A stretch of 64,000 nucleotides of DNA from an uncultured bacterium. GTDB taxonomy: Bacteria; Desulfobacterota_D; UBA1144; Nemesobacterales; UBA2774. The notes below the pieces were generated by a model. That model did no database searches and had not been told where the DNA came from. It was given only the letters and a program-made list of their open reading frames with translations. The stretch is from the NCBI GenBank assembly GCA_963705505.1, contig CAVPJU010000005.1, forward strand, positions 1 to 64,000, in the 5' to 3' direction. Shown here in pieces: positions 148-61,897 of the stretch (its first letter is position 1; every line of letters begins with the position of its first letter). The position numbers were made by a program, and so were the translations under genes.

Positions 148-3100
148 TTGAGATATACCATTAAAATTGTTGTATCTATACTCGTCGCGATACTCTCAAT
201 CGGCGGCTGCGACGAAAGTAACACGACGAACGAAGGCCCTCTGCCTAAAGACCCCAGTCGGTGGGTGTGTAAGAGCTCGCTTGTACCCCCTACTCAGGAG
301 CAAATTGATGAATTTTGCAGTACGCATTCCGGTGCGGGGCGGGAAGCTCCGCTAAATCTCCAGGACCCTCCTCCGTTGTCTGGCCTCGACGCGAAGAATG
401 AATACGACCTGGCATTCCAGGATTTTCTCGTAGCCAGGGACTATGTGAACGAGCTTGAGTGGTCAGGCGATATGAACTGGAGGTTGACGGGTCCTTATGT
501 CGGAGAAATAGGAAAGGGTCAGAACTACGGCGTGCATCCCGCTGTCAGAATCTACTACTCTCCCGAGGTACTGGAGTGGCTCTGTAACGGCAGAGAGGGC
601 AGCATCCCCGACGGAGCTATGATTATAAAGGAGATGCACTCAATTAACGATAAGCTCGGAATCACCCTCAATAGCGAGGGTTGTATGGTAATTAACAACG
701 ATGTCGAGCCACAGTCCTGGACTGTAATGGTCAAGCAAAGCGGAGCATCATACGACGGCTGGTACTGGGCTTCCTATGCCGTCGTCCCCGATCCTCCCGA
801 TTCCGCATGGGAAATAGGAAACCCTCCGGTATTCGACGCGTCGGGCGTTACGGGAATGGATTTCTTCGAGGATGGTTTAATACCGACAAAACCGAACCCG
901 CTCTGGTATCCGACGGGCTATGTTTACTCGAGCACGAATAAAATTCCGGACGTGGTGTATCCCTACAGCGAATACGGGAATAACTGCATAAACTGCCACG
1001 CTTCGGCAGCGACCGAATCGACATTTACATCGCTCGACAATTTATTGACTCCGGGTATCGAGTATAAACAGTTTCCTTCTAAAGGGACTACCCGGTCTTT
1101 CCACGCTGAGTTTCTCGCCGGCCCGCAGCCGGGGTTAATATCCCTGATTGCGCGAGACTCCGAATCTATAGGCGCTACGGACGTTCCCAGCGGAGCACGG
1201 GACGAGGTCAACGGCTACGTATCGCCCTTTACGACCGCGCTCGAGGAGCCGGAAGCGGAGTACCTGAATTTCTATAATCAGCTCGACGAGGTTTCCTTTA
1301 CTGACGCGTGGTTTCTGCGTCTCCCCGCCGAGACCTACGATCATATAGTGTCGGCTTCGACAAGCCCGGGGCAGTTTATCACGTCGGACCAATGTATCGG
1401 GTGCCATGACGCCACTTACCTGAACGCTGCACAACCCAATATGATACTCGAGCAGGATGTGAGCGGCGGGACGCAGCTTGTTAATCTTTCCCAGTACAGC
1501 GAATGGAGGGCGTCGCCAATGGGGCTTGCGGGCCGCGACCCTATCTTTTTCTCGCAGCTCCAGAGTGAAACGAACAACCTGCCTCAATACACGACGTGCG
1601 TGGAGAGCACGTGCCTTCATTGCCACGGCGTCATGGGACAGCGCCAGTTAGCTATAGATACTCCCGGCCAGGATACGGAGGACTGCAACAGCTTGTTCGC
1701 TGTAGCCCCGCCGGCCGGAGTACCGTCCGGAAAGCCGTTTAGTCTCGATATGGTAACGCAGTGGCCCGATTCCGAGCAGAACGAGTTTCAGGAATACGGG
1801 GCGCTTGCCAGGGACGGTATCTCCTGTACGGTCTGCCATCATATGTCGGATACCGATCTGGGTAATGAAGAAACTTTCACCGGGAATTTTGTCACGGGTC
1901 CTCCCGACGAAGTCTACGGACCCTATCAGGACGACACTATAGTTCCGAAACCGATGCAGCACGCTCTGGGTATAACGCCCGCGTTCAAGGATTATTTTGT
2001 AAGCGGCGACGCGTCCAGCTCGGATACTTGCGGAAGCTGTCACAACATACTGCTCCCGGTTATCACAAATCAGGGCGAGATAATCGGCGCTAGTTACGAG
2101 CAGACCACAAATCTCGAATGGGTAAACAGCGACTTCGCTCCCGGCAAGCCCGGTTTCCTCTCATGCGCGGATTGCCATATGCCTACGACGTTCGACGGAC
2201 AGCATCTGTCGTTTAAAATAGCCAATATCGAATCAAACGGGCTCCCGCCAACTACCGGGCGTCTGCCCGATCAGGATATAACGCTTACCGAGCGTGACGT
2301 ATTCCCCAGACACGCCCTCCACGGCCTTAACCTTTTTATAAACCAGATGTTCCAGCAGTTCCCGATCATCCTGGGCGCGCGTCAGATCGACTACATGACC
2401 GGAACGTCGACCGTTCCCGCTCTGATTACCGGAGCGAATTCCATGATCGATATGGCGCAGAATGAAACGGCCGCTATCGACGTTCAAACGCTCGAAGTCA
2501 CCCCCGAGGGACAACTGAGAGCGGTGGTGAAGGTAACCAATAAAGCCGGTCATTTCCTGCCCTCGGGCGTAAGCTTCAGACGGGTATTTATCGAGTTCCT
2601 GGTGCGTGACGCGGAAGGGAACGTGCTCTGGGCCTCGGGACGGACGAACGAGCTGGGCGCCATAGTTAAAGGTACAACGGAAGAAGTCCTTCCGAGCGAA
2701 GAGCCGGTCGAGAACCCGGACGCTCCGTTCCAGCCTCACTATCAGACAATCACCCGGGACGATGAGGTGCAGATATACCAGGAGCTTATAGAAGATTCGG
2801 AAGGCCATCTCACCACGAGCTTCCTGAGGCGCTTCGACACGGTTAAGGATAACCGCATCAGACCCAGGGGTTATAATCCGGCTTTCTTTCTGACATTCGA
2901 CTCTCCTTACATTCAGGCCCTCGCCGAGACACACGGAGAGGCCGCGCTCGACCCTTATTACACCGACCCCGCACTTACGGGAGCGGACGTGATCGAATAC
3001 CTGGTGCCGCTCGATGAGGCGACGCTCGGCAAGGTCCACGACGTGAAGGTCACTCTTTATAACCAGTCTATACCGCCGTTTTATCTCCAGGAGCGTTTCA

Positions 3101-3258
3101 GTGATGCGAACCGCGGCGCGGGAGAGAAAGATGAGATAGAGCGTCTTCAATACCTGACGAGCCACCTGAACGTTGACCAGGTAGCGGACAGCGATGGGAA
3201 TAAGGTTATGAAGGACTGGAAGCTGTTTATAACCAGTGCTACCGCCGCGCTCGAGTAG
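148..3258 (+). CDS. Large multiheme cytochrome c lipoprotein with N-terminal cytochrome P460-like domain
   Basis: Lipobox LSIGGC; six CxxCH motifs (CINCH, CIGCH, CLHCH, CTVCH, CGSCH, CADCH); P460-like segment PDGAMIIKEM..WTVMVK..GWYW. Confidence 0.8.
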   Translation: MRYTIKIVVSILVAILSIGGCDESNTTNEGPLPKDPSRWVCKSSLVPPTQEQIDEFCSTHSGAGREAPLNLQDPPPLSGLDAKNEYDLAFQDFLVARDYVNELEWSGDMNWRLTGPYVGEIGKGQNYGVHPAVRIYYSPEVLEWLCNGREGSIPDGAMIIKEMHSINDKLGITLNSEGCMVINNDVEPQSWTVMVKQSGASYDGWYWASYAVVPDPPDSAWEIGNPPVFDASGVTGMDFFEDGLIPTKPNPLWYPTGYVYSSTNKIPDVVYPYSEYGNNCINCHASAATESTFTSLDNLLTPGIEYKQFPSKGTTRSFHAEFLAGPQPGLISLIARDSESIGATDVPSGARDEVNGYVSPFTTALEEPEAEYLNFYNQLDEVSFTDAWFLRLPAETYDHIVSASTSPGQFITSDQCIGCHDATYLNAAQPNMILEQDVSGGTQLVNLSQYSEWRASPMGLAGRDPIFFSQLQSETNNLPQYTTCVESTCLHCHGVMGQRQLAIDTPGQDTEDCNSLFAVAPPAGVPSGKPFSLDMVTQWPDSEQNEFQEYGALARDGISCTVCHHMSDTDLGNEETFTGNFVTGPPDEVYGPYQDDTIVPKPMQHALGITPAFKDYFVSGDASSSDTCGSCHNILLPVITNQGEIIGASYEQTTNLEWVNSDFAPGKPGFLSCADCHMPTTFDGQHLSFKIANIESNGLPPTTGRLPDQDITLTERDVFPRHALHGLNLFINQMFQQFPIILGARQIDYMTGTSTVPALITGANSMIDMAQNETAAIDVQTLEVTPEGQLRAVVKVTNKAGHFLPSGVSFRRVFIEFLVRDAEGNVLWASGRTNELGAIVKGTTEEVLPSEEPVENPDAPFQPHYQTITRDDEVQIYQELIEDSEGHLTTSFLRRFDTVKDNRIRPRGYNPAFFLTFDSPYIQALAETHGEAALDPYYTDPALTGADVIEYLVPLDEATLGKVHDVKVTLYNQSIPPFYLQERFSDANRGAGEKDEIERLQYLTSHLNVDQVADSDGNKVMKDWKLFITSATAALE

Positions 3259-3261
3259 AGC

Positions 3262-3637
3262 TTTTCTACTTTTCCCTGATACAAAGAAGCACACACGCAG
3301 TGTGTTTCATGAAAAGACGAATAAACAGAAAGGCAAATATATTTCTCTTCTTTTCCTTGATGAAAAGAAGCAAAAATCACTCGACAGCACAGAATTAGCT
3401 AAAAATATCTCGTTAATGCTAAAATGTTTTAATTCCCCCAAGCCCTGAAAGAAAAAGACAAGGCGAAGATGATTTCTTCTTTGTCTTGATACAAAGAAGC
3501 AAAAATCAAGACTACACAGAATGTGGCTAAAAACAGGCTATCTCGACTAAAATCTTTTAATTCAGCCCGCACCCCTAAAAGATTTTTACGTCTCGATAGT
3601 CTGTTTTCTTAACGCCAATTCTGTGAATGTCGGGGAA
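3262..3637 (+). repeat. Composite intergenic element, copy 1 (partial unit plus full unit, empty apex loop)
   Basis: TTCTTTTCCTTGATGAAAAGAAGCAAAAATCA..CACAGAAT..CTAAAAA..TTTTCTTAACGCCAATTCTGTGAATGTCGGGG. Confidence 0.9.
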
Positions 3638-3685
3638 AGGCATTCGGGATTGATTGGGGTATGGAGGTAAACCCCCCACCCGAAC

Positions 3686-8811: not shown

Positions 8812-9023
8812 CGGATAAAAGAGAAGGCAAAACGTATTTTCTTCTTTTCCTTGATGAAAAGAAGCAAAAATCGCGCACATAGTGTACTCTATGAAAGACA
8901 GCACAGAATGTAGCTAAAAATATCTTCTTAAGGCTAAAATGTTTTAATTCCACCCACATCCCTAAAACATTTTTACGCCTTAGTAATCTATTTTTTTAAC
9001 GCCAATTCTGTGAATGTCGGGGA
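8812..9023 (+). repeat. Composite intergenic element, copy 2 (empty apex)
   Basis: Same modules as copy 1; REP-like hairpins continue to ~9252. Confidence 0.9.
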
Positions 9024-10274: not shown

Positions 10275-10495
10275 ACAGACACATAGTATGGTCTTTCGAA
10301 AAGACGGATAAAAGAGAAGGCAAAAGTATTTTCTTCTTTTCCTTGATGAAAAGAAGCAAAAATCATCCGACAGCACAGAATTGGGCTAAAAACAGATTAT
10401 CTCGGCTAAAATCTTTTAATTCAGCCCGCACCCCTAAAAGATTTTTACGTCTCGATACTCTGTTTTCTTAACGCCAATTCTGTGAATGTCGGGGG
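10275..10495 (+). repeat. Composite intergenic element, copy 3 (empty apex)
   Basis: Same modules. Confidence 0.9.
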
Positions 10496-11524: not shown

Positions 11525-11810
11525 CAAAGGCAAAGATAGTTTCTTCTTTTCCTTGATGAAAAGAAGCAAAAATCACACACATAGTGTGGTCTCTCGAAAA
11601 GACAGCACAGAATTGGCTAAAAATCCCTCGTTAACGCTAAAATGTTTTAATTCCACCCCAATTAGTATTAAGGCTTAGCGAAGCAAGACTCATGACATTA
11701 TTGCATTTAGCGAATGGCGTCCGATTCCTTGCTTGCTCGGGATCGTCCCCTAAAACATTTTTCGTGCGTTAACGAGTGATTTTCTTAACGCAAATTCTGT
11801 AATGTCGGGG
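11525..11810 (+). repeat. Composite element, copy 4, with a single cassette (11659-11747) in the apex loop
   Basis: Arms TTAACGC/GCGTTAA and TGTTTTA/TAAAACA flank CAATTAGTATTAAGG..GGCGTCCGATTCCTTGCTTGCTCGGGATCGTC. Confidence 0.9.
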
Positions 11811-15061: not shown

Positions 15062-15431
15062 TATCTTCTTTTCCTTGATACAAAGAACCAAAAATCACAC
15101 ACATAGTGTGGTCTCTCGAAAAGACGGATAAGAGAGAAGGCAAAAGTATTTTCTTCTTTTCCTTGATGACTCGTCAGGGCGGAGCCTGCCGTAGCCTGGA
15201 AAGAAGCAAAAATCATCCGACAGCACAGAATTTGCTAAAAATCTCTTGTTAACGCTAAAATGTTTCAATTCTACCCCAATTTGTATTAAGGCTTAGCGAA
15301 GCAAGACTCATGACATAATTGCATTTAGCGAATGGCGTCCGATTCCTTGCTTGCTCGGAATCGTCCCATGAAAGATTTATCGACGCCTTAATAATCTATT
15401 TTCTTCACGCCAATTCTGTGAATGTCGGGGA
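15062..15431 (+). repeat. Composite element, copy 5, single cassette (~15277-15365)
   Basis: Same modules; extra insert ACTCGTCAGGGCGGAGCCTGCCGTAGCCTGG after TTGATG. Confidence 0.9.
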
Positions 15432-15645
15432 AAAGACAAAGGCTGGATTCCCGATCGTAGTCGGGAATGACAGGAATATTAATGTACACCCCCACCCGGA
15501 CCCTCCCCCTTTTCTTAAGGGGGAGGGAAATTTATATGTGGGCGCTTGCCCGCCGCTAATTCCGTGAATGTCGGGGAAAAAGACAAGATTCCCGATTAAG
15601 CCATTCGGGATTGATTGGTGTATTGAGGTAAACCCCCACCCGAAC

Positions 15646-17377: not shown

Positions 17378-17675
17378 TTTCTTCTTTTCCTTGATGACTC
17401 GTCAGGGCGGAGCCTGCCGTAGCCTGGAAAGAAGCAAAAATCACACACGTAGTGTGTTTCATGAAAAGACAGCACAGAATTGGCTAAAAAGTGATTATTC
17501 CGGCTAAAATATTTCAATTCCACCTCAATTAGTATTAAGGCTTAGCGAAGCAAGACTCATGACATAATTGCATATAGCGAATGGCGTCCGATTCCTTGCT
17601 TGCTCGGAATCGTCCCGTAAAACATTTTCACGCCATAATAATCACTTTTCTTAACGCCAATTCTGTGAATGTCGG
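17378..17675 (+). repeat. Composite element, copy 6, single cassette (~17526-17614)
   Basis: Same modules. Confidence 0.9.
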
Positions 17676-18145: not shown

Positions 18146-18309
18146 GGGGCTTTGTTTGCGGCACATCGCTTGACGAGTTTTCGTGCGCAATTCGACCCTT
18201 CGATCCTTCAACGGACACAGGACAGGAAGTTCGATCCTTCGATAGTTCGGCAAGCTCACTGCTCAGTATGAACGGATTAGTATACTGAGGTGCCCCCTCA
18301 TCCTTCACC

Positions 18310-18401
18310 TATTTTGGTTTAGGCGGCATTGAGCCGAGAGTTGAAGTCCTTCGGCGCCTTTGTTGGAAGGGCGTCCAATTGTGCGCTTGCTTGCAATCGT
18401 T
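18310..18401 (+). mobile_element. 92-nt structured cassette in a CCTTCACCT..GGGGAGAAGG hairpin
   Basis: TATTTTGG..GGGCGTCC-AATTG..CAATC-GTT. Confidence 0.7.
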
Positions 18402-18730
18402 CCTCGAAGGGGAGAAGGAATTCTCAAGCAAAGACAAAACGAAAGATTTATAAATTCTCCCTGACACTCTCGTCAGGGAGGAGCCAGCCGGAGCACGGCC
18501 TTTTTCTAAGGAGGGAATGAAAAGATAAAAGATGAGATTTCTCGCCTGCACCTCAAAATGACAAACTTCGGCAGGCTCAGGGCGAACGGGTTAAATGAAA
18601 AATTCACCTTAACCTTTTTTCAGAGCGGGAATCTAGGCAATTAAGAGCGAGTTAATCTCGTTGAAATCGAGGGGCATCTAAACTATACTTTTGAAGGACG
18701 AATATAATTTATGACGGAGGAAGTTTCGAT

Positions 18731-21900: not shown

Positions 21901-22760
21901 ATTTCTTCTTTGTCTTGATACAAAGAAGCAAAAATCACACACATAGTGTGGTCTTTCGAAAAGATGGATAAGAGAGAAGGCAAAAGTATTTTCTTCTTTT
22001 CCTTGATGACTCGTCAGGGCGGAGCCTGCCGTAGCCTGGAAAGAAGCAAAAATCACACACGTAGTGTGGTCTTTCGAAAGACAGCACATAATTGGCTGAA
22101 AATATCTGATTCTGGATTGGGATGTTCTCACAGATGAAAATCCTAATGAGCAAAGGTCTAATACACAACAAAATATATTCAATGAGAAATTAAAAGAGCA
22201 GACAAATAAATATATCAAAGACAGTTTCTTCTCGATTTTGAATGATGCAATCAATCCCATTTGTAAGGCGGTGATTGATCAAAAGTGTGGTCATACTATT
22301 AACATAATACATCCTAAGGCATTTGGTGATGAGCACTTGAGACCAGAAATAAAACTCGAAATCGGAGCACGGGCTTCAATGATGCCTTCCGCTGAATTTA
22401 CTGTCAAACGTTATGCAGCTGAAGCTTTTCCTAGCGTGTTCGAGCAATTGGAAGTAAATGTTAATGCAATTAAAGCAGAGAGATCATTTTGGGAAAAGGT
22501 TACAATACTGCACGTTGAAGCTCATAGACCTAAAGATAAGGACGTCCGGATCGTTATTCGAGACATTATTATGATGTTTATAAGATGCTAGGGACTCAAG
22601 CAGCAACTAATGCTTTATTGACATCTACCACTGGCGTCCAGTTGTTACGCTTGCTCAGAACCGTTGCTTACAATCGTTACTTGCTCGGAATCGTCCCCTA
22701 AAACATTTTTCATGCGTTAACAAGCGATTTTCTTAACGCCAATTCTGTGAATGTCGGGGG
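21901..22760 (+). repeat. Composite element, copy 7, with its interior replaced by a foreign gene fragment
   Basis: Left arm to ~22115; 3' part of a triple cassette and the right arm from ~22611. Confidence 0.85.
22106..22620 (+). pseudogene. Internal fragment of an AbiEii/AbiGii-type nucleotidyltransferase toxin
   Basis: LILDW..RSNTQ, LRPEIKLEIGAR, ERSFWEKVTILH, then after a frameshift at ~22547 RYSRHYYDVY; no native start or stop; AT-rich. Confidence 0.8.
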
Positions 22761-22815
22761 AAACAGGAAGCGGATTCGAGTTCTTGAATCAACTTCAGGA
22801 CAGGCTGGGACGGGG

Positions 22816-23586
22816 TCAGGAGAGTGAAGCGGTTTTGCGGCGGATTACGAATAGCCCGGTTGCGGCGAGTATGATTGCCATTACCGCTATGCCCCATTGC
22901 GAGAGCGCCGGGACCCGCTGAATGTTCGCGTTCGTGAAATACACCTTCTCGACGGCGTTGAAGCTAAGCTGCGTAATGAGGTCTGCGTCTATGAAGGTTA
23001 TCCTTTCGATAAGCGAATCGGAGGTGATCCCGACAAACGTGTCGAAGAGGCTGTCAACCGGCACTGTGGTCTCGCCGAGCAGAACATTGCCCGCTCCGAA
23101 GACCTGCACAAGCATGGTCTGTCCGGTGCACGGCAGTCCGAAGCCCTGATCGAAGAGGCACCCCAGCTCGAGACCCACCGCATTTACATTATTTCCGGGA
23201 AACGTGATCACGCTCTTCTGGAGGGAGCCGTCGGGTAAGAGGACTTTCTCGGGATTCAGGTTCGAGAAAAGGAACGGCCCGGAAAGGATGGTATCCCCGA
23301 AGTCGGGGTCGGTGCTGAACGCTATGCCGGGCAGTATGTCGCCGGGCGAGAAACAATCGTCGTTTGAATTGCTGTCCACCGGAGTTGCACATCCTTTGAT
23401 CTCTCCCGTGGCCACGTTGCCGCTTGCGAATGTCTGCAGAAGGAGTCCGGGGTTGTCCTGGATGAACTGTCCGCGGTTCGACGTGAATGTGACCTCGGCC
23501 TGAGATGTATCGGCGCTTATATAAAGCGCGACGGCCGATGAGGCCAGCAGCGTTATAAAGAAGATCGCACCACGTATATCCAGCAT
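22816..23586 (-). CDS. IPTL-CTERM sorting-domain surface protein
   Basis: Signal peptide; C-terminal VPALSQWG + TM + RRK. Confidence 0.85.
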   Translation of the reverse strand: MLDIRGAIFFITLLASSAVALYISADTSQAEVTFTSNRGQFIQDNPGLLLQTFASGNVATGEIKGCATPVDSNSNDDCFSPGDILPGIAFSTDPDFGDTILSGPFLFSNLNPEKVLLPDGSLQKSVITFPGNNVNAVGLELGCLFDQGFGLPCTGQTMLVQVFGAGNVLLGETTVPVDSLFDTFVGITSDSLIERITFIDADLITQLSFNAVEKVYFTNANIQRVPALSQWGIAVMAIILAATGLFVIRRKTASLS

Positions 23587-23675
23587 TCCACTCCTCCTCT
23601 AAGATCTTACAATGCCACGATTATACCGAATATGAGGCGTTAATTCAATCCTGCCGGAGCCGGTTACGAGCTGGA

Positions 23676-23909
23676 TCACTGCTTGATTTCGACGGGGAGG
23701 GAGTTGTAAACGGAGCTGCCGTTTACTTCCTCTATGTTGACGTCGAGTACCTTATTTATGCTGCTGCCGTCGATCTGTTTGAGGTTCACGTCGATGATCC
23801 CGGTCGATGCGTCTACGTCCTTCGCTTGAAAAAACGGGTTAAGGAATATGCCCCAGAGCGCGAGCGCAATGAGGGTCAGGATTATTTTCGTGTAGGTGTC
23901 TATTTTCAT
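23676..23909 (-). CDS. Small membrane-anchored hypothetical protein
   Basis: RBS AGGAGG; DTYTKIILTLIALAL TM segment. Confidence 0.7.
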   Translation of the reverse strand: MKIDTYTKIILTLIALALWGIFLNPFFQAKDVDASTGIIDVNLKQIDGSSINKVLDVNIEEVNGSSVYNSLPVEIKQ

Positions 23910-23994
23910 GTGATGCCTCCTGTGAATATTTTAACCCGGATCGGGGTGGGTTTGTTGCCGCCTGATGGTGGGAGGATTTAAAAATGGGAAAAGA

Positions 23995-24425
23995 AAGGCA
24001 AATATATTTCTCTTCTTTTCCTTGATGAAAAGAAGCAAAAATCACAGACTGCACAGAATTGTGCTGAAAATATCTTAATTAACGCTAAAATGTTTTAATT
24101 CCTCCCCAATTAGTATTAAGGCTTAGCGAAGCAAGACTCATGACATAATTGCATTTAGCGAATGGCGTCCGATTTGTTTTGTTTTCTGCCGCTGCTGAAC
24201 CAAACATTTGCATTGATGCACTCAGCGTAGGGCGTCCGGTTGTTCGGTTTTTGATTTTTTTACTTGGTGCCCAATACATTTGCTTTATTGAAATCTACCA
24301 CTGGCGTCCAGTTCTTACGCTTGCTCAGAACTGTTGCTCACAACCGTTGCTTGCTCGGAATCGTCCCCTAAAACATTTTTACGCCTTAATAATCTATTTT
24401 CTTCACGCAAATTCTGTGAATGTCC
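23995..24425 (+). repeat. Composite element, copy 8, triple-nested cassettes (24107-24365)
   Basis: Three GGCGTCC left arms closed in reverse order by AGAACT, ACAACC, GGAATC. Confidence 0.9.
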
Positions 24426-24648
24426 TCAAAAAGATGGAGGCTGGGATAGTTGTTCGAAATTGTATGTCCGCGGGTGCTCACCCGCCGCCAATTCTGTGTA
24501 TGTCGGGGAAACAAAATATTTTCGAGTATAACGCGTTCCTGCGCCCTGCGATCCTTCGACAAGCTGAGGACAGGAATATAGCGGATAAATGTAAAGAAGA
24601 ATTTATTCCGGGTTGAAAATGGGGGCGGAAACAAGAATACTTGCTCAG

Positions 24649-25392
24649 ATGAGGACTTTAGTCGTAGGGGACATTCACGGGAACCTGAGAGCGTTGAGGC
24701 AGGCGTTCGAGCGCTCGGGGTTCGACCCCAAGGCGGACAGGCTCATATCGCTCGGCGACGTATTCGACGGCCACCCGTATTCCGCGGAGTGCGTCGAGGA
24801 GCTGATGAAGGTGAAGGACCTCGTCTGGTGCCTCGGGAACCACGACGCGCTTGCGCTCTCGTGGCTCCGGGGGGAATGGAAGGGTAAAAAGACGCTCGGC
24901 GAGTGGAAGTACGAGGAGCTTGTCATGATCATGTTTTCGTACGGCGGGGGGGAGAAAGAGGCCGACCGTGTGCGGATGAAGAGGCACGCTGAATTCGCGG
25001 GGCGTAAGTGTGTCCGTTACCACATCGATGAAGCGGACAGGTTCTATGTCCACGCGGGCATAGACTGGGATTATCCTGTCGGCGAGCAGCCCGACCCCGG
25101 CGTTTATTACTACGACAGGAGGACGTACGCGCTGTTCGCGCCGCTTTACGAGATAGGCGGGATGAAGTTCCCCTACAGGGACGTGTTCGTCGGGCACACG
25201 AAGACCATACGCGAGTACCCGGACGGAAAGCCGGTGAGGAAGGCGAACCTCTGGAACCTCGACACGGGCGCGGGGACGTACGGGAAGCTCACGATAATGG
25301 ATGCGGATACCTATGAATACTGGCAGAGCGATTGGGGGGAGGGGACGGAAGATGACTATAATTTTATGCTGAGAAAGAAAAATCTGTCGTGA
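24649..25392 (+). CDS. Metallophosphoesterase (Ser/Thr phosphatase-like)
   Basis: GDIHG, GDVFDG, GNHD, VHAG, VGHT, LDTG. Confidence 0.9.
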   Translation: MRTLVVGDIHGNLRALRQAFERSGFDPKADRLISLGDVFDGHPYSAECVEELMKVKDLVWCLGNHDALALSWLRGEWKGKKTLGEWKYEELVMIMFSYGGGEKEADRVRMKRHAEFAGRKCVRYHIDEADRFYVHAGIDWDYPVGEQPDPGVYYYDRRTYALFAPLYEIGGMKFPYRDVFVGHTKTIREYPDGKPVRKANLWNLDTGAGTYGKLTIMDADTYEYWQSDWGEGTEDDYNFMLRKKNLS

Positions 25393-25484
25393 TGTTTATT
25401 TTGTAATGACGGAATAAAAAGACAAAGACGAGATTTCCACACTTCGTTTCAATTCGCTTACTACGACAAAGAAAAGGCAAATAT

Positions 25485-27845: not shown

Positions 27846-28363
27846 TTATCTTCTTTGTCTTGATACAAAGAAAATCAGACACAAAGCTGGTCTTTCGAAA
27901 AGACGGATAAGAGAGAAGGCAAAGATTTCTCTTCTTTTCCTGATGAAGCAAAAATCACACACGTAGTGTGTTTCATGAAAAGACAGCACAGAATTTGCTA
28001 AAAATATATTATTAAGGCTAAAATCTTTCAATTCCGCCCTAATTAGCATCGTGGTTTACAGTGAAGCAAGACTCATGACATTGTTGCATTTGGGCAAGGG
28101 CGTCCGATTCGTTTTGTTTTCTGCCGCTGCTGAACCAAACATTTGCATTGATGCACTCAGCGTAGGGCGTCCGGTTGTTCGGTTTTTGATTTTTTTACTT
28201 GGTGCCCAATACATTTGCTTTATTGAAATCTACCACTGGCGTCCAGTTCTTACGCTTGCTCAGAACTGTTGCTCACAACCGTTCCTACTCGGAATCGTCC
28301 CATGAAAGATTTTCACGCCTTAACAATCTATTTTCTTAACGCCAATTCTGTGAATGTCGGGGA
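27846..28363 (+). repeat. Composite element, copy 10, triple-nested cassettes (~28040-28300)
   Basis: Same inner cassettes as copy 8 with a variant outer cassette. Confidence 0.9.
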
Positions 28364-30589: not shown

Positions 30590-30968
30590 AGATGATTTCT
30601 TCTTTTCCTTGATGACAACGACAGGGCAGGATCCACACGTAGCCTGTGTATTCAAGAAGCAAAAATCATCCGACTGCACAGAATTGGCTAAAAATATACT
30701 ATCTTAAGGCTAAAATCTTTCAATTCCACCCTAATTAGCATCGTGGTTTACAGTGAAGCAAGACTCATGACATTGTTGCATTTGGGCAAGGGCGTCCGAT
30801 TCGTTTTGTTTTCTGCCGCTGCTGAACCAAACATTTGCATTGATGCACTCAGCGTAGGGCGTCCGGTTGTTCACTTGCTCACAACCGTTACTTACTCGGA
30901 ATCGTCCCCTAAAAGATTTTTACGTCTCGATAATCTGTTTTCTTAACGCCAATTCTGTGATGTCGGGG
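30590..30968 (+). repeat. Composite element, copy 11, double-nested cassettes (30732-30906)
   Basis: Inner cassette 30802-30889 keeps an intact hairpin GGTTGT-TCACTTGCTC-ACAACC. Confidence 0.9.
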
Positions 30969-36247: not shown

Positions 36248-36600
36248 GTTTCTTCTTTGTCTTGATACAAAGAAGCAAAAATCACACACATAGTGTGGTC
36301 TTTCGAAAATACGAAGAAAAAAGAAAGGCAAATATATTTCTCTTCTTTTCCGTTTGAGCCTGCCGTAGCCTGAAAAGAAGCAAAAATCACCGACTGCACA
36401 GAATTGTGCTAAAAATATCTTATTCCGGCTAAAATGTTTCAATTCCTCCCAAATTAGCTTCGTAGCTTATTGATATTCGAGGCTCATTACCTATCACTGA
36501 TAGGAAAGGGCGTCCGATTCCTTGCTTGCTCGGAATCGTCCCCTGAAAGATTTTCACGCCTTAATAATCTATTTTCTTAACGCAAATTCTGTGATGTCCT
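36248..36600 (+). repeat. Composite element, copy 12, single divergent cassette (~36450-36540)
   Basis: Same ends, different cassette interior. Confidence 0.88.
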
Positions 36601-37094
36601 CAAAAAGATGGAGGGTGGGATGGTTGTTCGATATTATAAGTCTGCGGGTGCTTGCCCGCCGTCAATTCTGTGAATGTCATCAAAAGATTAAATTCCCGGT
36701 AAAGGCGTTTTGGAATCACAGGAATATTGAGGTAAACCCCCACCCTATCCCTCCCCCTTGGAAATGGGGAGGGAATTAATAAGAGAGGCTAAAGTAGATT
36801 TCTCGCGATGCTCGAAATGACAAATTTCGATCCTTCGACTGCACACTACGTGTGCGCTCAGGGCGAATGGGTTATTGAAATTAATGTACACCCCCATCCT
36901 CACCTTCCCCCTTGATATGGGGAAGGGAAAACTGCTCAAAGATGGGAATGAAAGGGGCGGATCTGTGTTGCCGGAAGCAGCGTATCAATATCGATGAGCG
37001 CTCCGGGAGGGGCTTGTCCTGGGGCAGGTCTATGAATTAGAATAGTCCGGAGGAGCGGCCACGGTTCAGGGTCAATACGGGGGCCGGATTTGAT

Positions 37095-38234: not shown

Positions 38235-38407
38235 GCAAAGATAGTTTCTTCTTTTCCTTGATGAAAAGAAGCAAAAATCATCCGACACACAGAATTGTGC
38301 TAAAAATCCCTCGTTAACGCTAAAATGTTTTAATTCCGCCGCAGCCCTAAAAGATTTTCATGCCTTAATAATCGATTTTCTTAACGCCAATTCTGTGAAT
38401 GTCGGGG
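38235..38407 (+). repeat. Composite element, copy 13 (empty apex)
   Basis: Same modules. Confidence 0.9.
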
Positions 38408-39289: not shown

Positions 39290-39467
39290 AGGCAAAAATA
39301 GTTTTCTTCTTTTCCTTGATGAAAAGAAGCAAAAATCATCCGACACACAGAATTGTGCTAAAAATCCATCGTTAACGCTAAAATCTTTCAATTCCACCCA
39401 CACACCTGAAACGATTTTCACGCGTTAACAAGCGGTTTTCTTAACGCAAATTCTGTGAATGTCGGGG
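39290..39467 (+). repeat. Composite element, copy 14 (empty apex)
   Basis: Same modules. Confidence 0.9.
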
Positions 39468-45235: not shown

Positions 45236-45503
45236 TTTTCTTTTTCTTGAACAAGAAGCAAAAATCACACACGTAGTGTGGTCTTTCGAAAAGACAGCAC
45301 AGAATGAGGCTAAAAACACTATTAACGACTAAAATCTTTTAATTCCGCCCCAATTAGTATTAAGGCTTAGCGAAGCAAGACTCAATGACATAATTGCATT
45401 TAGCGAATGGCGTCCGATTCCTTGCTTGCTCGGAATCGTCCCCTAAAAGATTTTTACGTCTCGATAATCTATTTTCTTAACGCCAATTCTGTGAATGTCG
45501 GGG
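45236..45503 (+). repeat. Composite element, copy 15, single cassette (~45351-45440)
   Basis: Same modules. Confidence 0.9.
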
Positions 45504-46306: not shown

Positions 46307-46538
46307 CCGGACTCCCGCCGGAATTTCTATAAAACTTTTATTCCCCGAGACACAATCAGAGAATAACATTGAGGTGAGAGCTGATTAATTTGCAATTCGG
46401 CAATTAGCCGGGGTACATCGACTGCGGGATTGCTTGCGGCTGTTGTTCAGCAAGACAAATCTTAAATACAAAAAAGTGGATTCCCGATAGAGACATTCGG
46501 GAATGACAGAAAAATTAAGGTAATCCCCCCACCCAAAC

Positions 46539-46713
46539 TATTTTGGCTCAGGCATTGTTGAGCCGGAGATAAGCACCTTCGTTGCCTTTGTTGTAAGTGT
46601 GACCTACTTATTTTGGCTTCAATAGAGTATCCCAAGAACATTAGCATTTCAGTATTCAACCAGAGGCGACCGGATTCTCGCTTATTCGAATCCGTTGCTT
46701 GCTCGAAGCAGTT
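46539..46713 (+). mobile_element. Double-nested cassette (inner 46609-46696)
   Basis: Inner ATTTTGG..GCGACC-GGATTC-TCGCTTATTC-GAATCC-GTT inside the outer terminal hairpin. Confidence 0.7.
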
Positions 46714-50494: not shown

Positions 50495-50960
50495 TTCTTC
50501 GTTGTCTTTCCTGAAATGAATTCAGGACAGGGATGCAAAGAAGCAAAAATCACACACGTAGTGTGTTTCATGAAAAGACAGCACAGAATTTGGCTAAAAA
50601 TATCTTATTCAGGCTAAAATCTTTCAATTCCTCCCTAATTAGCATCGTGGCTTACAATGAAGTAAGAGTAATGACGTTATTGCATTTAGGAAAGGGCGTC
50701 CGATTCATTTTGTTTTCTGCCGCTGCTGAACCAAACATTTGCATTGATGCACTCAGCGTAGGGCGTCCGGTTGTTCGGTTTTTGATTTTTTTACTTGGTG
50801 CCCAATACATTTGCTTTATTGAAATCTACCACTGGCGTCCAGTTCTTACGCTTGCTCAGAACGTCGCTCACAACCGTTACTTGCTCGGAATCGTCCCCTG
50901 AAACATTTTTTTCGTGCGTTAACATCCGATTTCTTAACGCCAATTCTGTGAATGTCGGGA
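50495..50960 (+). repeat. Composite element, copy 16, triple-nested cassettes (~50636-50895)
   Basis: Same inner cassettes as copies 8 and 10. Confidence 0.9.
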
Positions 50961-52614: not shown

Positions 52615-53137
52615 TTTTTTTCTTTGTCCTGATAACAAAAAAAATCAGCACACACAGTGTGTGGATTATGAAAAAGACAAAGAAAGGCAAATATTATTTC
52701 TTCTTTTCCTTGATGAAAAGAAGCAAAAATCACACACGTAGTGTGTTTCATGAAAAGACAGCACAGAATTAGCTAAAAATATCTTATTAAGGCGAAAATC
52801 TTTCAATTCCGCCCCAATTAGTATCAAGGCTTAGCGAAGCAAGACTCATGACATAATTGCATTTAGCGAATGGCGTCCGATTGTTTTGGCTTGAGTAGAT
52901 TATCCGAAGAACATCAGCATAGTGCATTCAGCTAAAGTCGTCCGATTGTGCGGTTTTTGATTTTTTTACTTGGTGCCCAATACATTTGCTTTATTGAAAT
53001 CTACCACTGGCGTCCAGTTCTTACGCTTGCTCAGAACTGTTGCTTACAATCGTTACTTGCTCGGAATCGTCCCATGAAAGATTTATTGACGCCTTAATAA
53101 TCTATTTTCTTAACGCCAATTCTGTGAATGTCGGGGG
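52615..53137 (+). repeat. Composite element, copy 17, triple-nested with an alternative middle cassette (~52815-53071)
   Basis: Middle stem GATTGT/ACAATC. Confidence 0.9.
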
Positions 53138-55309: not shown

Positions 55310-55665
55310 GGCAAAGATATCTCTCTTCTTTTCCTTCAGGAAAAGAAGCAAAAATCGCACGTGTGTGCGTTTTATGAAAGACATAGAACAAAGATAAGGC
55401 AAACATATTTTCTTCTTTTCCTTGATGAAAAGAAGCAAAAATCATCCGACAGCACAGAATTGGCTAAAAACAGACTATCTCGACTAAAATCTTTTAATTC
55501 AGCCCCAATTAGTATTAAGGCTTAGCGAAGCAAGACTCATGACATAATTGCATTTAGCGAATGGCGTCCGATTGCTTTGGCTTGAGTTGCTCGGAACCGT
55601 CCCCTAAAAGATTTTTACGTCTCGATAATCTGTTTTCTTAACGCCAATTCTGTGTATGTCGGGGA
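55310..55665 (+). repeat. Composite element, copy 18, internally deleted nested cassette
   Basis: GGCGTCCGATTGCTTTGGCTTGAG joined directly to TTGCTCGGAACCGTCCCC. Confidence 0.88.
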
Positions 55666-56807: not shown

Positions 56808-57160
56808 TATCTTCTTTGTCTTGATACAAAGAAGCAAAAATCACACACATAGTGTGGTCTTTCGAAAAGACGGATAAAAGAGAAGGCAAATATATTTCTC
56901 TTCTTTTCCTTGATGAAAAGAAGCAAAAATCACACACGTAGTGTGACGACTGCACAGAATTGTGCTAAAAATATCTTAGTTAAGGCTATAATCTTTCAAT
57001 CCCACCCTAATTAGTATCAAGGTTTAGTGAAGCAAGACTCGTGAAATAATTGTATTTAGCGAGTGGCGTCCGATTCCTTACTTGCTCGGAATCGTCCCAT
57101 GAAAGATTTTCACGCCTTAATAATCTATTTTCTTAACGCAAATTCTGTGAATGTCGGGGA
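56808..57160 (+). repeat. Composite element, copy 19, single cassette (~57008-57096)
   Basis: Same modules. Confidence 0.9.
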
Positions 57161-58381: not shown

Positions 58382-58697
58382 TAATTTGGGATATAGCAAC
58401 ATTGAACCCGAAGTTAATCTCCTTCGGCGCTCTTGTAGGGGTAGGGCGTCCGAATGCGCGCTTGCTTGCGTTCGTCCCCCTTTACAAAACCCTCTCCCAT
58501 GCAGGGGAGTGGGAAATAAAAACTTGTATTGCCTGAGTGCCGTGGTAAGGAGACTTATTTGCAATCAGCCAATGGCGTCCGGTTCTTGCTAATTTGGTTT
58601 CTACAACATCAACACGGAGTGATATTCGCGTTCATGGATTCAACCAGTAGAGCGACCGAATTCTTCACTTGCTCGAGAATTGTTGTTCAGAACCGTT
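58382..58697 (+). mobile_element. One cassette (58382-58476) and a double-nested cassette (~58515-58697; inner 58590-58684)
   Basis: TAATTTGG starts; stems GAATGC/GCGTTC, GGTTCT/AGAACC, AATTCT/AGAATT. Confidence 0.65.
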
Positions 58698-61642: not shown

Positions 61643-61897
61643 TATCTTCTTTGTCTTGATACAAAGAAGCAAAAATCACACACATAGTGTGGTCTTTCGA
61701 AAAGACGGATAAAAGAGAAGGCAAATATATTTCTCTTCTTTTCCTTGATGAAAAGAAGCAAAAATCATCGACTGCACAGAATTGTGCTGAAAATTTCTTA
61801 TTAAGGCGAAAATCTTTCAATTCCTCCCACACCCCTGAAAGATTTATTGACGCCTTAATAATCTGTTTTCTTAACGCCAATTCTGTGAATGTCGGGA
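61643..61897 (+). repeat. Composite element, copy 20 (empty apex)
   Basis: Same modules. Confidence 0.9.

Follow-up and report, generated by a model that had tools for sequence, protein, structure and literature searches.

Self-nesting hairpin units of about 90 nucleotides in a Dadabacteria-lineage genome: a probable family of very small, non-autonomous mobile DNA elements

Among the small hairpin repeats of bacterial genomes, REPINs are symmetric doublets of inverted repetitive extragenic palindromic (REP) sequences, tied to a single-copy gene for a REP-associated tyrosine transposase (RAYT) that is flanked by its own REPs (PMC3116915). How most such repeats spread (REP, bacterial interspersed mosaic elements or BIMEs, and ERIC sequences) is still open, and the present work concerns what may be an unusually readable case: a family of gene-less units of about 90 nt, found in a 64,000-nt stretch of DNA from an uncultured bacterium, in which one unit sits inside the hairpin of another. 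This stretch, hereafter the window, comprises the first 64 kb of contig C5 (CAVPJU010000005.1; 74 kb) of genome G000 (2.88 Mb in 10 contigs, 93.6% complete). Insertion at hairpins is also a property of complete insertion sequences: IS1397 and ISKpn1 in REP loops, IS621 and other members of the IS110 family in REPs, and the IS1111-attC group all target hairpin repeats or recombination sites.

From comparison of their sequences, the units are probably mobile DNA elements that are non-autonomous, target hairpins, measure only about 88-97 nt and form a family specific to this lineage. In the window they are most conspicuous at the apex of an imperfect outer hairpin of about 130 nt, here called O, which is present in 19 copies, exclusively on the + strand, and whose apex contains 0, 1, 2 or 3 nested units. 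Six O copies are empty, one is truncated, seven hold a single unit, one holds two and four hold three, the last being listed with start positions 24085, 28018, 50614 and 52793. The motif GGCGTCCNGTT, allowing at most one mismatch, has 25 matches in the window, 23 of them on the + strand, against a mean of 4.94 in shuffled sequences (0 of 100 shuffles reach 25).

The composite at 24047-24424 displays the nesting in full. From the outermost to the innermost, the units are called A, B and C: A runs from 24108 to 24364 and B, inside it, from 24175 to 24348, and C is complete at 24246-24335. Their left arms read GGCGTCC+GATT (24164-24174), GGCGTCC+GGTT (24231-24241) and GGCGTCC+AGTT (24303-24313), and the closing arms follow in the reverse order, AGAACTG (24327-24333), ACAACCG (24340-24346) and GGAATCG (24357-24363). 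The triple at 24107-24365, with three left arms closed in reverse order, thus reads as the first-pass annotation had described it. The parts of the composite, all on the + strand, are as follows.

24047..24107, + strand: left arm of O, up to the C-rich apex; it pairs with 24365-24424, and the outer stem is retained in the DNA fold
24108..24174, + strand: 5' part of unit A, with the box at 24164-24170 and the GATT of the left arm (nhmmer match 24103-24174, E 4e-16)
24175..24245, + strand: 5' part of unit B, with the box at 24231-24237 and the left arm CGGTTGT (nhmmer match 24175-24243, E 5e-11)
24246..24335, + strand: unit C, complete and innermost, with the box at 24303-24309 (nhmmer match 24249-24315)
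24336..24348, + strand: 3' part of unit B, consisting of the loop remainder GCTC, the right arm ACAACCG and TT (by comparison with the uninterrupted B at 30832-30890)
24349..24364, + strand: 3' part of unit A, consisting of the loop remainder GCTTGCTC, the right arm GGAATCG and T (by comparison with uninterrupted A, e.g. 15308-15366)
24365..24424, + strand: right arm of O, with the terminal AATTCTGTGAATGTC motif (from the listing of O copies)

Units measure about 88-97 nt, of which the 5' part of about 60 nt is poorly conserved and often starts with YRTTTTGG. Their internal parts are a TTGCA-like box, an invariant GGCGTCC box, a 7-bp hairpin and the 3' end (C)GTT. The arms of the hairpin covary according to the pattern C-R-R-T-T-N-N / N-N-A-A-Y-Y-G, and its loop is 10-11 nt long and rich in C and T. 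In unit C, the hairpin spans 24309-24333 as CAGTTCT, an 11-nt loop and AGAACTG, followed by TT. An nhmmer profile built from 29 left arms retrieves A, B and C as separate matches, and finds 47 arms in G000 at E<=1e-3 and 52 at E<=1e-2. Of the 47 arms, 28 lie in C5, every one on the + strand, and the remainder are spread over C10, C8, C9, C4, C2 and C6. A profile of the 5' end adds a few copies with diverged boxes, and none of the matches to the 5'-end and 3'-arm profiles in G000 belongs to a copy longer than about 97 nt. These profile matches support the view that A, B, C and the other cassettes are one homologous family of gene-less units of about 90 nt. Each is seated at the loop of the previous one, as had been proposed, and more exactly at the 5' side of that loop.

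The 3' hairpin is the sole conserved structure that RNAalifold predicts among 14 diverse full units, the 5' part of about 60 nt being unpaired. For a wider sample, 120 distinct 3' modules were gathered from G000 and from fetched loci of other genomes, and the 100 of them with no more than two mismatches in the best 7-bp stem formed the covariation alignment; the 20 left out are for the most part truncated or interrupted by a nested unit. In the named stem, 93.0% of the cells are paired compared with 82.9% in shuffles, a fraction that is biased upward by the preselection of stems at <=2 mismatches, and cells changed on both sides number 68 versus 12.7; none of 500 shuffles reaches either value. 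When the stem partner is slid by 1-3 columns, the paired fraction falls to 18-53%. One stem position has C opposite A in 31 of the 100 modules. Judged by these compensatory changes, the 3' hairpin of the unit is under selection.

Beyond the triple described above, all the empty, single, double and triple O copies of the first-pass annotation were recovered, and two more were added (55484 and the composite at 22580-22755), as were both of the nestings that it had placed outside O. These features of the window are given below.

8934..9018, + strand: empty O with a core of 84-87 nt; likewise 3547-3631, 10406-10490, 38320-38403, 39378-39463 and 61807-61893 (O listing)
3419, + strand: truncated O, counted beside the six empty copies (O listing)
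11637..11806, + strand: O with one unit (A); likewise 15255-15426, 17504-17673, 36429-36598, 45329-45499 and 56986-57155 (O listing)
30710..30964, + strand: O with two units (A', B), the hairpin of B uninterrupted (O listing and list of 3' modules)
28018..28358, + strand: O with three units (A', B, C) (O listing and identity comparison)
50614..50956, + strand: O with three units (A', B, C) (O listing and identity comparison)
52793..53132, + strand: O with three units (A, B', C), B' being 62-64% identical to B with the same C inside
55484..55660, + strand: O with unit A; in the loop of A, 13 nt from the 5' end of B' are left (internal deletion, at 55537-55592)
22580..22755, + strand: composite with the right half only, namely a C-like unit followed by the right-hand portions of B', A and O, the corresponding left ones being missing
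46538..46713, + strand: nesting outside O, with a unit in a C-rich/G-rich (Q-type) hairpin context and a second unit in the hairpin of the first
58515..58697, + strand: second nesting outside O, with the outer box at 58574 and the inner unit at about 58600-58690
18307..18402, + strand: solitary unit in or beside a Q-type hairpin; similar starts at 3685, 15645, 42248, 45573, 51221, 53189 and 58380

The order of the nests can be read from the similarity of their parts. Across the five composites that hold more than one unit, C is 99-100% identical (in the four that contain it), B 97-100%, A or A' 76-100% and the left arm of O 71-94%; the B at 24175..24245, for instance, shares 97-100% of its positions with the B copies at 28110, 30802 and 50706. 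An identical C is found in B and in B', and an identical B in A and in A', which are themselves only 76-80% identical to each other. That the inner units are the most alike is consistent with the innermost being the youngest. Furthermore, the nine uninterrupted A-type hairpins of G000 have perfect or near-perfect 7-bp stems and the consensus loop, so an origin of the shorter states by deletion would need exact restoration each time. Both the gradient towards the inner units and the sharing of C and B thus favour insertion over the deletion-only history that had been named as a possible refutation. Unit-in-unit nestings are also present in other genomes, and in three other assemblies, different hosts contain a nested homologue of the inner unit of 46538-46713.

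Regarding the sites of insertion, the units occupy the 5' side of loops in intergenic hairpins, the hosts being O, two other families and, recursively, the hairpin of the unit itself. Comparison of filled with unfilled hosts allows the junctions to be read and shows that 2-5 host bases are replaced by the insert: CC in A (CCTT counting the shared TT), AC in B (ACTT), GCTC in B', CCTC in the C-rich hairpins and the central 3-5 nt at the apex of O. The insert is bounded by imperfect 4-nt direct repeats, YRTT...YGTT, with TGTT, CGTT, CATT or GGTT on the left and CGTT or TGTT on the right, and the left junction differs between copies with otherwise identical interiors. Counting sites in or beside loops, at least three other hairpin families besides the unit's own act as hosts, Q-type and P-type included, examples being C-run/G-run hairpins (e.g. 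3685, 18307, 42248 and 45573) and the GATTGCCGCG...GCAATGAC type at C10:276.5 kb. Across 78 distinct flank pairs, taken as 22 nt on each side, the flanks pair with a mean of -6.7 kcal/mol compared with -4.8 for mismatched partners and shuffles, and 32% of them reach -8 kcal/mol or better, versus 6% of mismatched partners and 6% of shuffles.

Logan contigs of four other metagenome runs, sharing at most 0.35 of the words, were compared over 22400-25400. Although no contig spans the whole composite, nested junctions are crossed in three of the runs (X2 record 13, 24177-24383; X4 record 26, 24128-24332; X3 record 20, 24229-24338), and the nesting is therefore not an artefact of this assembly. Other metagenome contigs present the single-unit state, with a joint from 24174 to 24347 and CC between, and further ones have empty apices. 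These contigs are most likely paralogous copies or come from related strains, and so are not alleles of the site at 24047-24424.

A second setting for the units is the 3' end of tRNA genes. In G000, units lie directly behind tRNA-Arg(CCU) (C8:189208), tRNA-Glu(UUC) (C8:144394) and tRNA-Arg(UCU) (C10:547230). The two units behind tRNA-Arg(CCU) have a length of about 72 nt, and after each of them the terminal 14-16 nt of the tRNA are repeated; in five species, G000 included, this locus carries 2, 2, 8, 2 and 3 units with the same 14-16-nt tRNA end. Behind the other two tRNAs, too, each unit precedes a repeat of the 14-16-nt tRNA end. Across loci, the tRNA-linked arrays range from 1 to 8 units, and one array unit holds a nested full unit. 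The period of the arrays, 72+16 nt, equals the full unit length. The sequence repeated behind tRNA-Arg(UCU) is that tRNA's own 3' end, and the 18-nt repeat in a tandem array of units of one relative does not correspond to a tRNA end. ARAGORN and RF00005 call the genuine tRNA that heads the arrays and no further cloverleaf.

The choice of tRNA appears to depend on its terminal sequence. Both G000 tRNAs ending in GGGGACGC carry units, compared with only one of the other 42 (tRNA-Arg(UCU)), the remaining 41 having none; by hand arithmetic, the chance that three occupied loci include both GGGGACGC tRNAs is about 0.003. In a wider sample, which consists of fetched loci and is thus biased, with some genomes counted twice, a unit lies <=60 nt downstream of 9 of 12 tRNAs with GGACGC in their last 14 nt versus 2 of 57 others. 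The GGCGTCC box is the complement of GGACGCC, and in array units it stands directly 5' of the hairpin while GGACGC stands 10 nt 3' of it; GGACGCA is constant at the insertion site behind tRNAs. This pairing of box and site (GGCGTCC/GGACGC) is absent in the nested and O contexts. A role of the box as a tRNA primer-binding site, through pairing with the CCA-tailed tRNA end, was considered and dropped: a T precedes the box in only part of the copies, and the orientation of the arrays is also unfit for priming.

Three species have an integrase island at tRNA-Arg(CCU) instead, and one of the three has its array behind the 47-nt repeat of the island. In the relative G003, an island of about 54 kb on contig C2 (about 72.7-126.6 kb; loci L047 and L052) carries a tyrosine integrase gene next to tRNA-Arg(CCU) and is bounded by a repeat different from that of the units, 47 nt of the tRNA 3' half, with an older unit array beyond the distal repeat. 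Foreign DNA also lies directly behind tRNA-Arg(CCU) in G006 and G008. Additionally, a short palindrome, CACACA-A/T-T/A-GTGTG, with a tail of about 15 nt is found behind several tRNA genes (Arg-ACG, Ser-GCU, Arg-CCU and Arg-UCU). It closes every tRNA-linked unit array and has about 43 strand-hits in G000; its sites include C4:132-206, C4:5157-5250, C8:~189456 and C10:~547150 in that genome, and loci L042, L044 and L052.

From the perspective of its distribution, the unit family is restricted to genomes of the Dadabacteria lineage. By BLAST, the composite matches 20 of 61 genomes, including G000, all nine others of the genus, the only genome of a second genus and, more weakly, nine further genomes of the family or order. 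An exact-pattern scan of 185,579 species genomes returned 63 loci, 55 of them with a unit by profile, nearly all in metagenome-assembled genomes labelled Dadabacteria, Thermodesulfobacteriota or delta proteobacterium. Some contigs are labelled Spirochaetia; their proteins are 71-77% identical and syntenic to those of G000, and we take that label to be wrong. A scan of metagenomes gave 50 loci, 42 with a unit, and no match to the composite was found in plasmid and phage collections. At an intergenic site at C10:276.5 kb, G000 has a unit inside a hairpin where two of seven relatives have only 18-19 nt. The remaining relatives have other sets of repeats; in one of these a hairpin of that kind holds a different unit, and in another there are two units. 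Comparison of this site provides evidence for an insertion since speciation. At C10:472.6 kb, eight relatives have an unrelated spacer of 61-91 nt, and no exact empty site can therefore be read.

The enzyme that would move the units was sought in their neighbourhood. No recombinase or transposase domain is encoded by any of the 56 open reading frames (ORFs) of the window, in agreement with the first-pass annotation, nor by any of the 70 ORFs of neighbouring repeat-rich contigs. ORFs were also clustered within 3 kb of the 63 genome loci and within 4 kb of the 50 metagenome loci. The largest cluster (19 loci) consists of spurious ORFs over repeat DNA, and the rest are ordinary genes (MarR, extracytoplasmic function sigma factor, MFS, NmrA). 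Single RAYT-like genes, with Y1_Tnp scores of 48-52 bits, occur in the relatives G009 (L127) and G003 (L128) and have a GGAGCGGCTTCCAGCCGC-type palindromic repeat on both sides; one unit lies about 800 nt away from the gene in G003, and none adjoins either gene. About five copies of the GGAGCGGCTTCCAGCCGC-type repeat are present in G000, whose assembly has no such RAYT-like gene, and the CACACA-type palindrome also adjoins the RAYT-like gene of G003. A consensus search for a dif-like site, for comparison, found nothing usable.

If the units are mobile elements of this kind, single-stranded hairpin DNA would be either the form in which they move or the place they move into, and the enzyme would be one encoded elsewhere or one of the host. 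Each new copy would supply a fresh target, either its own loop or the repeated tRNA end, by which stacks and arrays could grow, and the innermost unit of a stack would be the most recent. Three candidate chemistries may be envisaged, each of which suits part of the data. A single-strand transposition of the HUH type guided by the GGCGTCC box would fit the tRNA arrays, but the enzyme was not found and the nested sites are unfit for it. Integration of a small circle by a tyrosine recombinase would fit the long repeats at tRNAs, but not the replaced loop bases. Finally, cleavage of the hairpin loop and repair from a paralogue would fit the identity gradient and leave the new hosts unexplained. 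A bolder proposal, for which the odds seem to us poor, is that the units are mobile DNA that needs no dedicated transposase: cutting and joining of a single-stranded hairpin of about 90 nt would fall to a housekeeping enzyme, for instance a hairpin nuclease, a Xer-type recombinase or a replication protein, and both structure and GGCGTCC/GGACGC pairing (e.g. at the 3' ends of tRNA-Arg and tRNA-Glu) would direct the hairpin to its site, with each insertion recreating its target. Were this true, the stacks, with the inner unit newest, and the tRNA arrays would be natural chronological records of insertion.

Several observations weigh against a mobile, hairpin-targeting element. With respect to the enzyme, G000 has no match to Y1_Tnp (PF01797), to the DEDD domain of IS110 (DEDD_Tnp_IS110) or to RVT_1, no search having been aimed at Y2/IS91, serine recombinases, relaxases or TnpB. 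No integron integrase (TIGR02249) is found in G000 above the 265-bit cut-off, the best score being 90.7 bits for Xer-like ORFs, and phage-type integrases are also below threshold. RVT_1 and Y1_Tnp are each present in only three of the nine other genomes of the genus, though units occur in all nine. As for copies beside a mobility gene, for which the first-pass annotation had suggested looking, no recombinase recurs within 3-4 kb of units at 97 loci. With respect to structure, the stems were preselected as stated above, and RNAalifold predicts no consensus pair on the 100-module alignment. The 4-nt repeats at the ends differ from the replaced host bases, and therefore a simple target duplication or a core crossover is a misfit. 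With respect to history, a shorter state produced by deletion is seen in one copy (55537-55592, with the first 13 nt of B' in the A loop), and the identity gradient could derive partly or wholly from gene conversion centred on the apex. No moving intermediate, excision or circle junction, series of excision scars or pair of an empty and a filled allele of one site is seen, and mobility is a comparative inference.

Weighed in this way, the claims made for the element fare unevenly. Recursive nesting bears out the idea that it carries its own target, which is only part of its range, as it also enters at least three other hairpin families and the arrays behind tRNA-Arg(CCU), tRNA-Arg(UCU) and tRNA-Glu(UUC). 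Its description as a non-autonomous mobile element finds backing in the identity gradient and in the presence of the same inner unit in different hosts, the movement itself being deduced from comparisons. As for the ordered record of insertions, the greater similarity of the inner units speaks for it; because deletion occurs and gene conversion at the apex is possible, such a record is plausible and unproven.

Other explanations of the nests have to be set beside a mobile element. The units might owe their positions to break repair and not to transposition, if long hairpins extruded in the course of replication were cut at the loop by a host hairpin nuclease and the break repaired from a paralogous O, so that the apex content (0-3 units) would be copied between O copies by gene conversion and insertion would be limited to rare founding events. 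Identity drops symmetrically outward from the apex, as an apex-started conversion tract would have it, the non-matching variable stem segments on the left and right of many O copies (15255, 30710, 45329 and 50614) suggest exchange within the element, and no transposase was found in the families searched. The insertion point at the 5' side of the loop is also where SbcCD cuts hairpins. Break repair could not, however, create the first nesting, and it explains neither the same C within B and B', nor the units in unrelated hairpins and at tRNA ends; we consider it unlikely as the full account. Alternatively, the units could be modules of a structured non-coding or cis-acting RNA, processed for example with tRNAs and kept for their function as RNA. 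The strong covariation of the 3' hairpin is in line with this, as are the pairing that some 5' hairpins keep via G-T (G-U in RNA) and the arrays directly behind tRNA genes that repeat the tRNA 3' end, a layout similar to that of tyrT-rtT in E. coli. Nevertheless, only the 3' hairpin is conserved among the 14 diverse units, its commonest mismatch is C-A on this strand and would be unpaired in RNA of this strand, and the units lie between genes of either orientation. Rfam 15 has no match at the gathering score in the 64-kb window, and thus none that would explain the nesting; at E<=10, matches are at chance level only on the composite and confined to the true tRNA on the tRNA array. As a function would in any case leave the origin of nested copies unexplained, the RNA explanation is improbable.

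Lower still stands the possibility that the O hairpins are recombination sites of an integron-like cassette array, with the units as tiny cassettes or as hybrid sites made by an integrase. The 19 O copies of the window, like those of C9 and C4, all point in one direction and separate unrelated blocks of accessory genes, and the units end in G-TT. Against this, no integron integrase exceeds the model cut-off, the blocks comprise 1-4 genes on either strand, relatives have their copies dispersed among many loci, and integron recombination yields tandem and not nested cassettes. By inspection against the attC consensus, O lacks the attC order RYYYAAC...GTTRRRY, its only GTTAAG-like word being on the opposite strand in the 5' half. 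This makes an integron-like array very improbable. The idea that the nestings arose in assembly, from collapsed or chimeric repeats, is hardly credible. It draws on the metagenome-type assembly of 10 contigs and on the very repeat-rich region, and it is contradicted by the contigs from three other runs that span nested junctions, by homologous nestings in the assemblies of other species and by four triple stacks in the window with different outer flanks.

Compared with described systems, the nearest likeness of the hairpin-targeting units is to REPs, REPINs and BIMEs, with which they share short, gene-less, intergenic hairpin repeats, compensatory changes and clustering, as well as a movement presumed to occur via an enzyme acting in trans on single-stranded hairpins (PMC3116915). 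They differ from REPINs in their asymmetry, with an arm of about 60 nt and one 3' hairpin, although O itself does show the doublet form, and in that G000 has no match to a RAYT (Y1) while the RAYT-like genes of relatives are flanked by a different repeat. Self-nesting to a depth of three and arrays at tRNA ends are not described in the consulted passages of PMC3116915. With elements of the IS200/IS605 family, the units have in common strand specificity, the lack of a true target duplication and a subterminal hairpin with cleavage a few bases 3' of it, and the arrangement of box and GGACGC in the tRNA arrays resembles the layout of guide and cleavage site in IS608. Here, however, a Y1 transposase is absent from G000 and present in three of nine other genus genomes, and there is only one terminal hairpin. 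In the hairpin contexts there is no duplication, and the left flank ends variously in ATT, AAC, ACC, TCC or GCA. Insertion at a defined place in an intergenic palindrome is shared with IS1397/ISKpn1, IS621/IS110 and the IS1111-attC group; all of these are full insertion sequences with a transposase, whereas the units do not exceed about 97 nt and G000 has no DEDD domain.

Other likenesses are more partial. Integrase-less cis-mobilizable elements and the tyrT repeats of E. coli also place a tRNA 3' end after each unit, in variable number, but the present units, of about 72 nt plus a 14-16-nt repeat, have a conserved hairpin module and are also nested far from tRNAs. ERIC with its inserts, BOX and the cyanobacterial SDRs are likewise imperfect palindromic repeats with short and long forms due to inserts at fixed internal places; in the present case there is no Rfam match, and the insert itself hosts the next insert. 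Unlike miniature inverted-repeat transposable elements (MITEs), the units have ends that are direct and imperfect (YRTT...YGTT) and not inverted, 2-5 host bases are replaced and not duplicated, no related full-length element is found by the profiles in G000 and no recurrent transposase lies near 97 copies elsewhere. As the defining features of a REPIN, an integron, a MITE, an IS200/IS605 derivative, an Rfam family or a tRNA pseudogene are largely wanting, the family is filed as a small hairpin-bearing intergenic mobile repeat. The first-pass annotation had seen no kinship with CRISPR arrays, integrons, REP/BIME or MITEs, which is upheld for integrons, MITEs and REPINs, while the setting as a whole is a REP/BIME-like mosaic. 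A search of the open literature, to which subscription-only literature and ISfinder were external, found no prior description of the unit family.

The interest of the family lies in that its insertion points are readable to the base, and in that, the element being its own target, the order of arrival may be inferred from the depth of nesting. The same element builds variable arrays behind tRNA genes whose 3' end is complementary to a conserved box. The mover, if found, might be a new recombinase specific for hairpins or single strands, or a host enzyme put to a new use. Even if the family were an ordinary RAYT-type system that lacks its gene, it would extend RAYT systems to asymmetric, self-nesting elements. 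For this uncultured lineage, the stacks and arrays might further provide strain markers.

Regarding the surroundings, most O copies are followed downstream by a fixed chain of other hairpin modules (e.g. 15427-15600, 24425-24510 and 36599-36690). The first module is a GATTCCCG...CGGGAATGAC or GATTGCCGCG...GCAATGAC hairpin, the second a C-run/G-run hairpin and the third a short GC hairpin, after which comes a second copy of the AATTCTGTGA(A)TGTCGGGGAA motif. In C5, the modules are on the + strand only, with 8+8 of the first two types and 0 on the - strand. This chain is a BIME-like mosaic. In many O copies, among them the four with non-matching stems cited above, the left and right variable stem segments are non-complementary and each resembles half of another copy, which suggests an exchange between O copies at or near the apex.

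Contigs C5, C9 and C4 are apparently one repeat-rich accessory region, which looks like a cassette array without an integrase; none was found on these three contigs. All hairpin families are co-oriented across them, and their GC skew is the highest in the assembly (0.06-0.09). Orientation agrees with the sign of the skew in 37 of the 47 arms, nearly all of these from C5, C9 and C4, and is mixed elsewhere; a replication-strand bias of the units was rejected, as the agreement comes almost entirely from those contigs. At the left edge of the array, an ORF of 1036 aa (window 148-3258) has a weak match (27.7 bits, below the cut-off) to the domains of the outer-membrane multihaem cytochromes MtrC/MtrF. 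The co-oriented O copies (window 3400-62000) separate unrelated accessory blocks of 1-4 genes on either strand, as do those of C9 and C4. These blocks include ABC/OEP efflux, a luciferase-like oxidoreductase, an amino-acid permease, RimK+AstE, a type III polyketide synthase operon and CorA, as well as a chromate transporter, a beta-lactamase-fold protein, GNAT, an AbiEii fragment, a methyltransferase, HicAB and DUF559.

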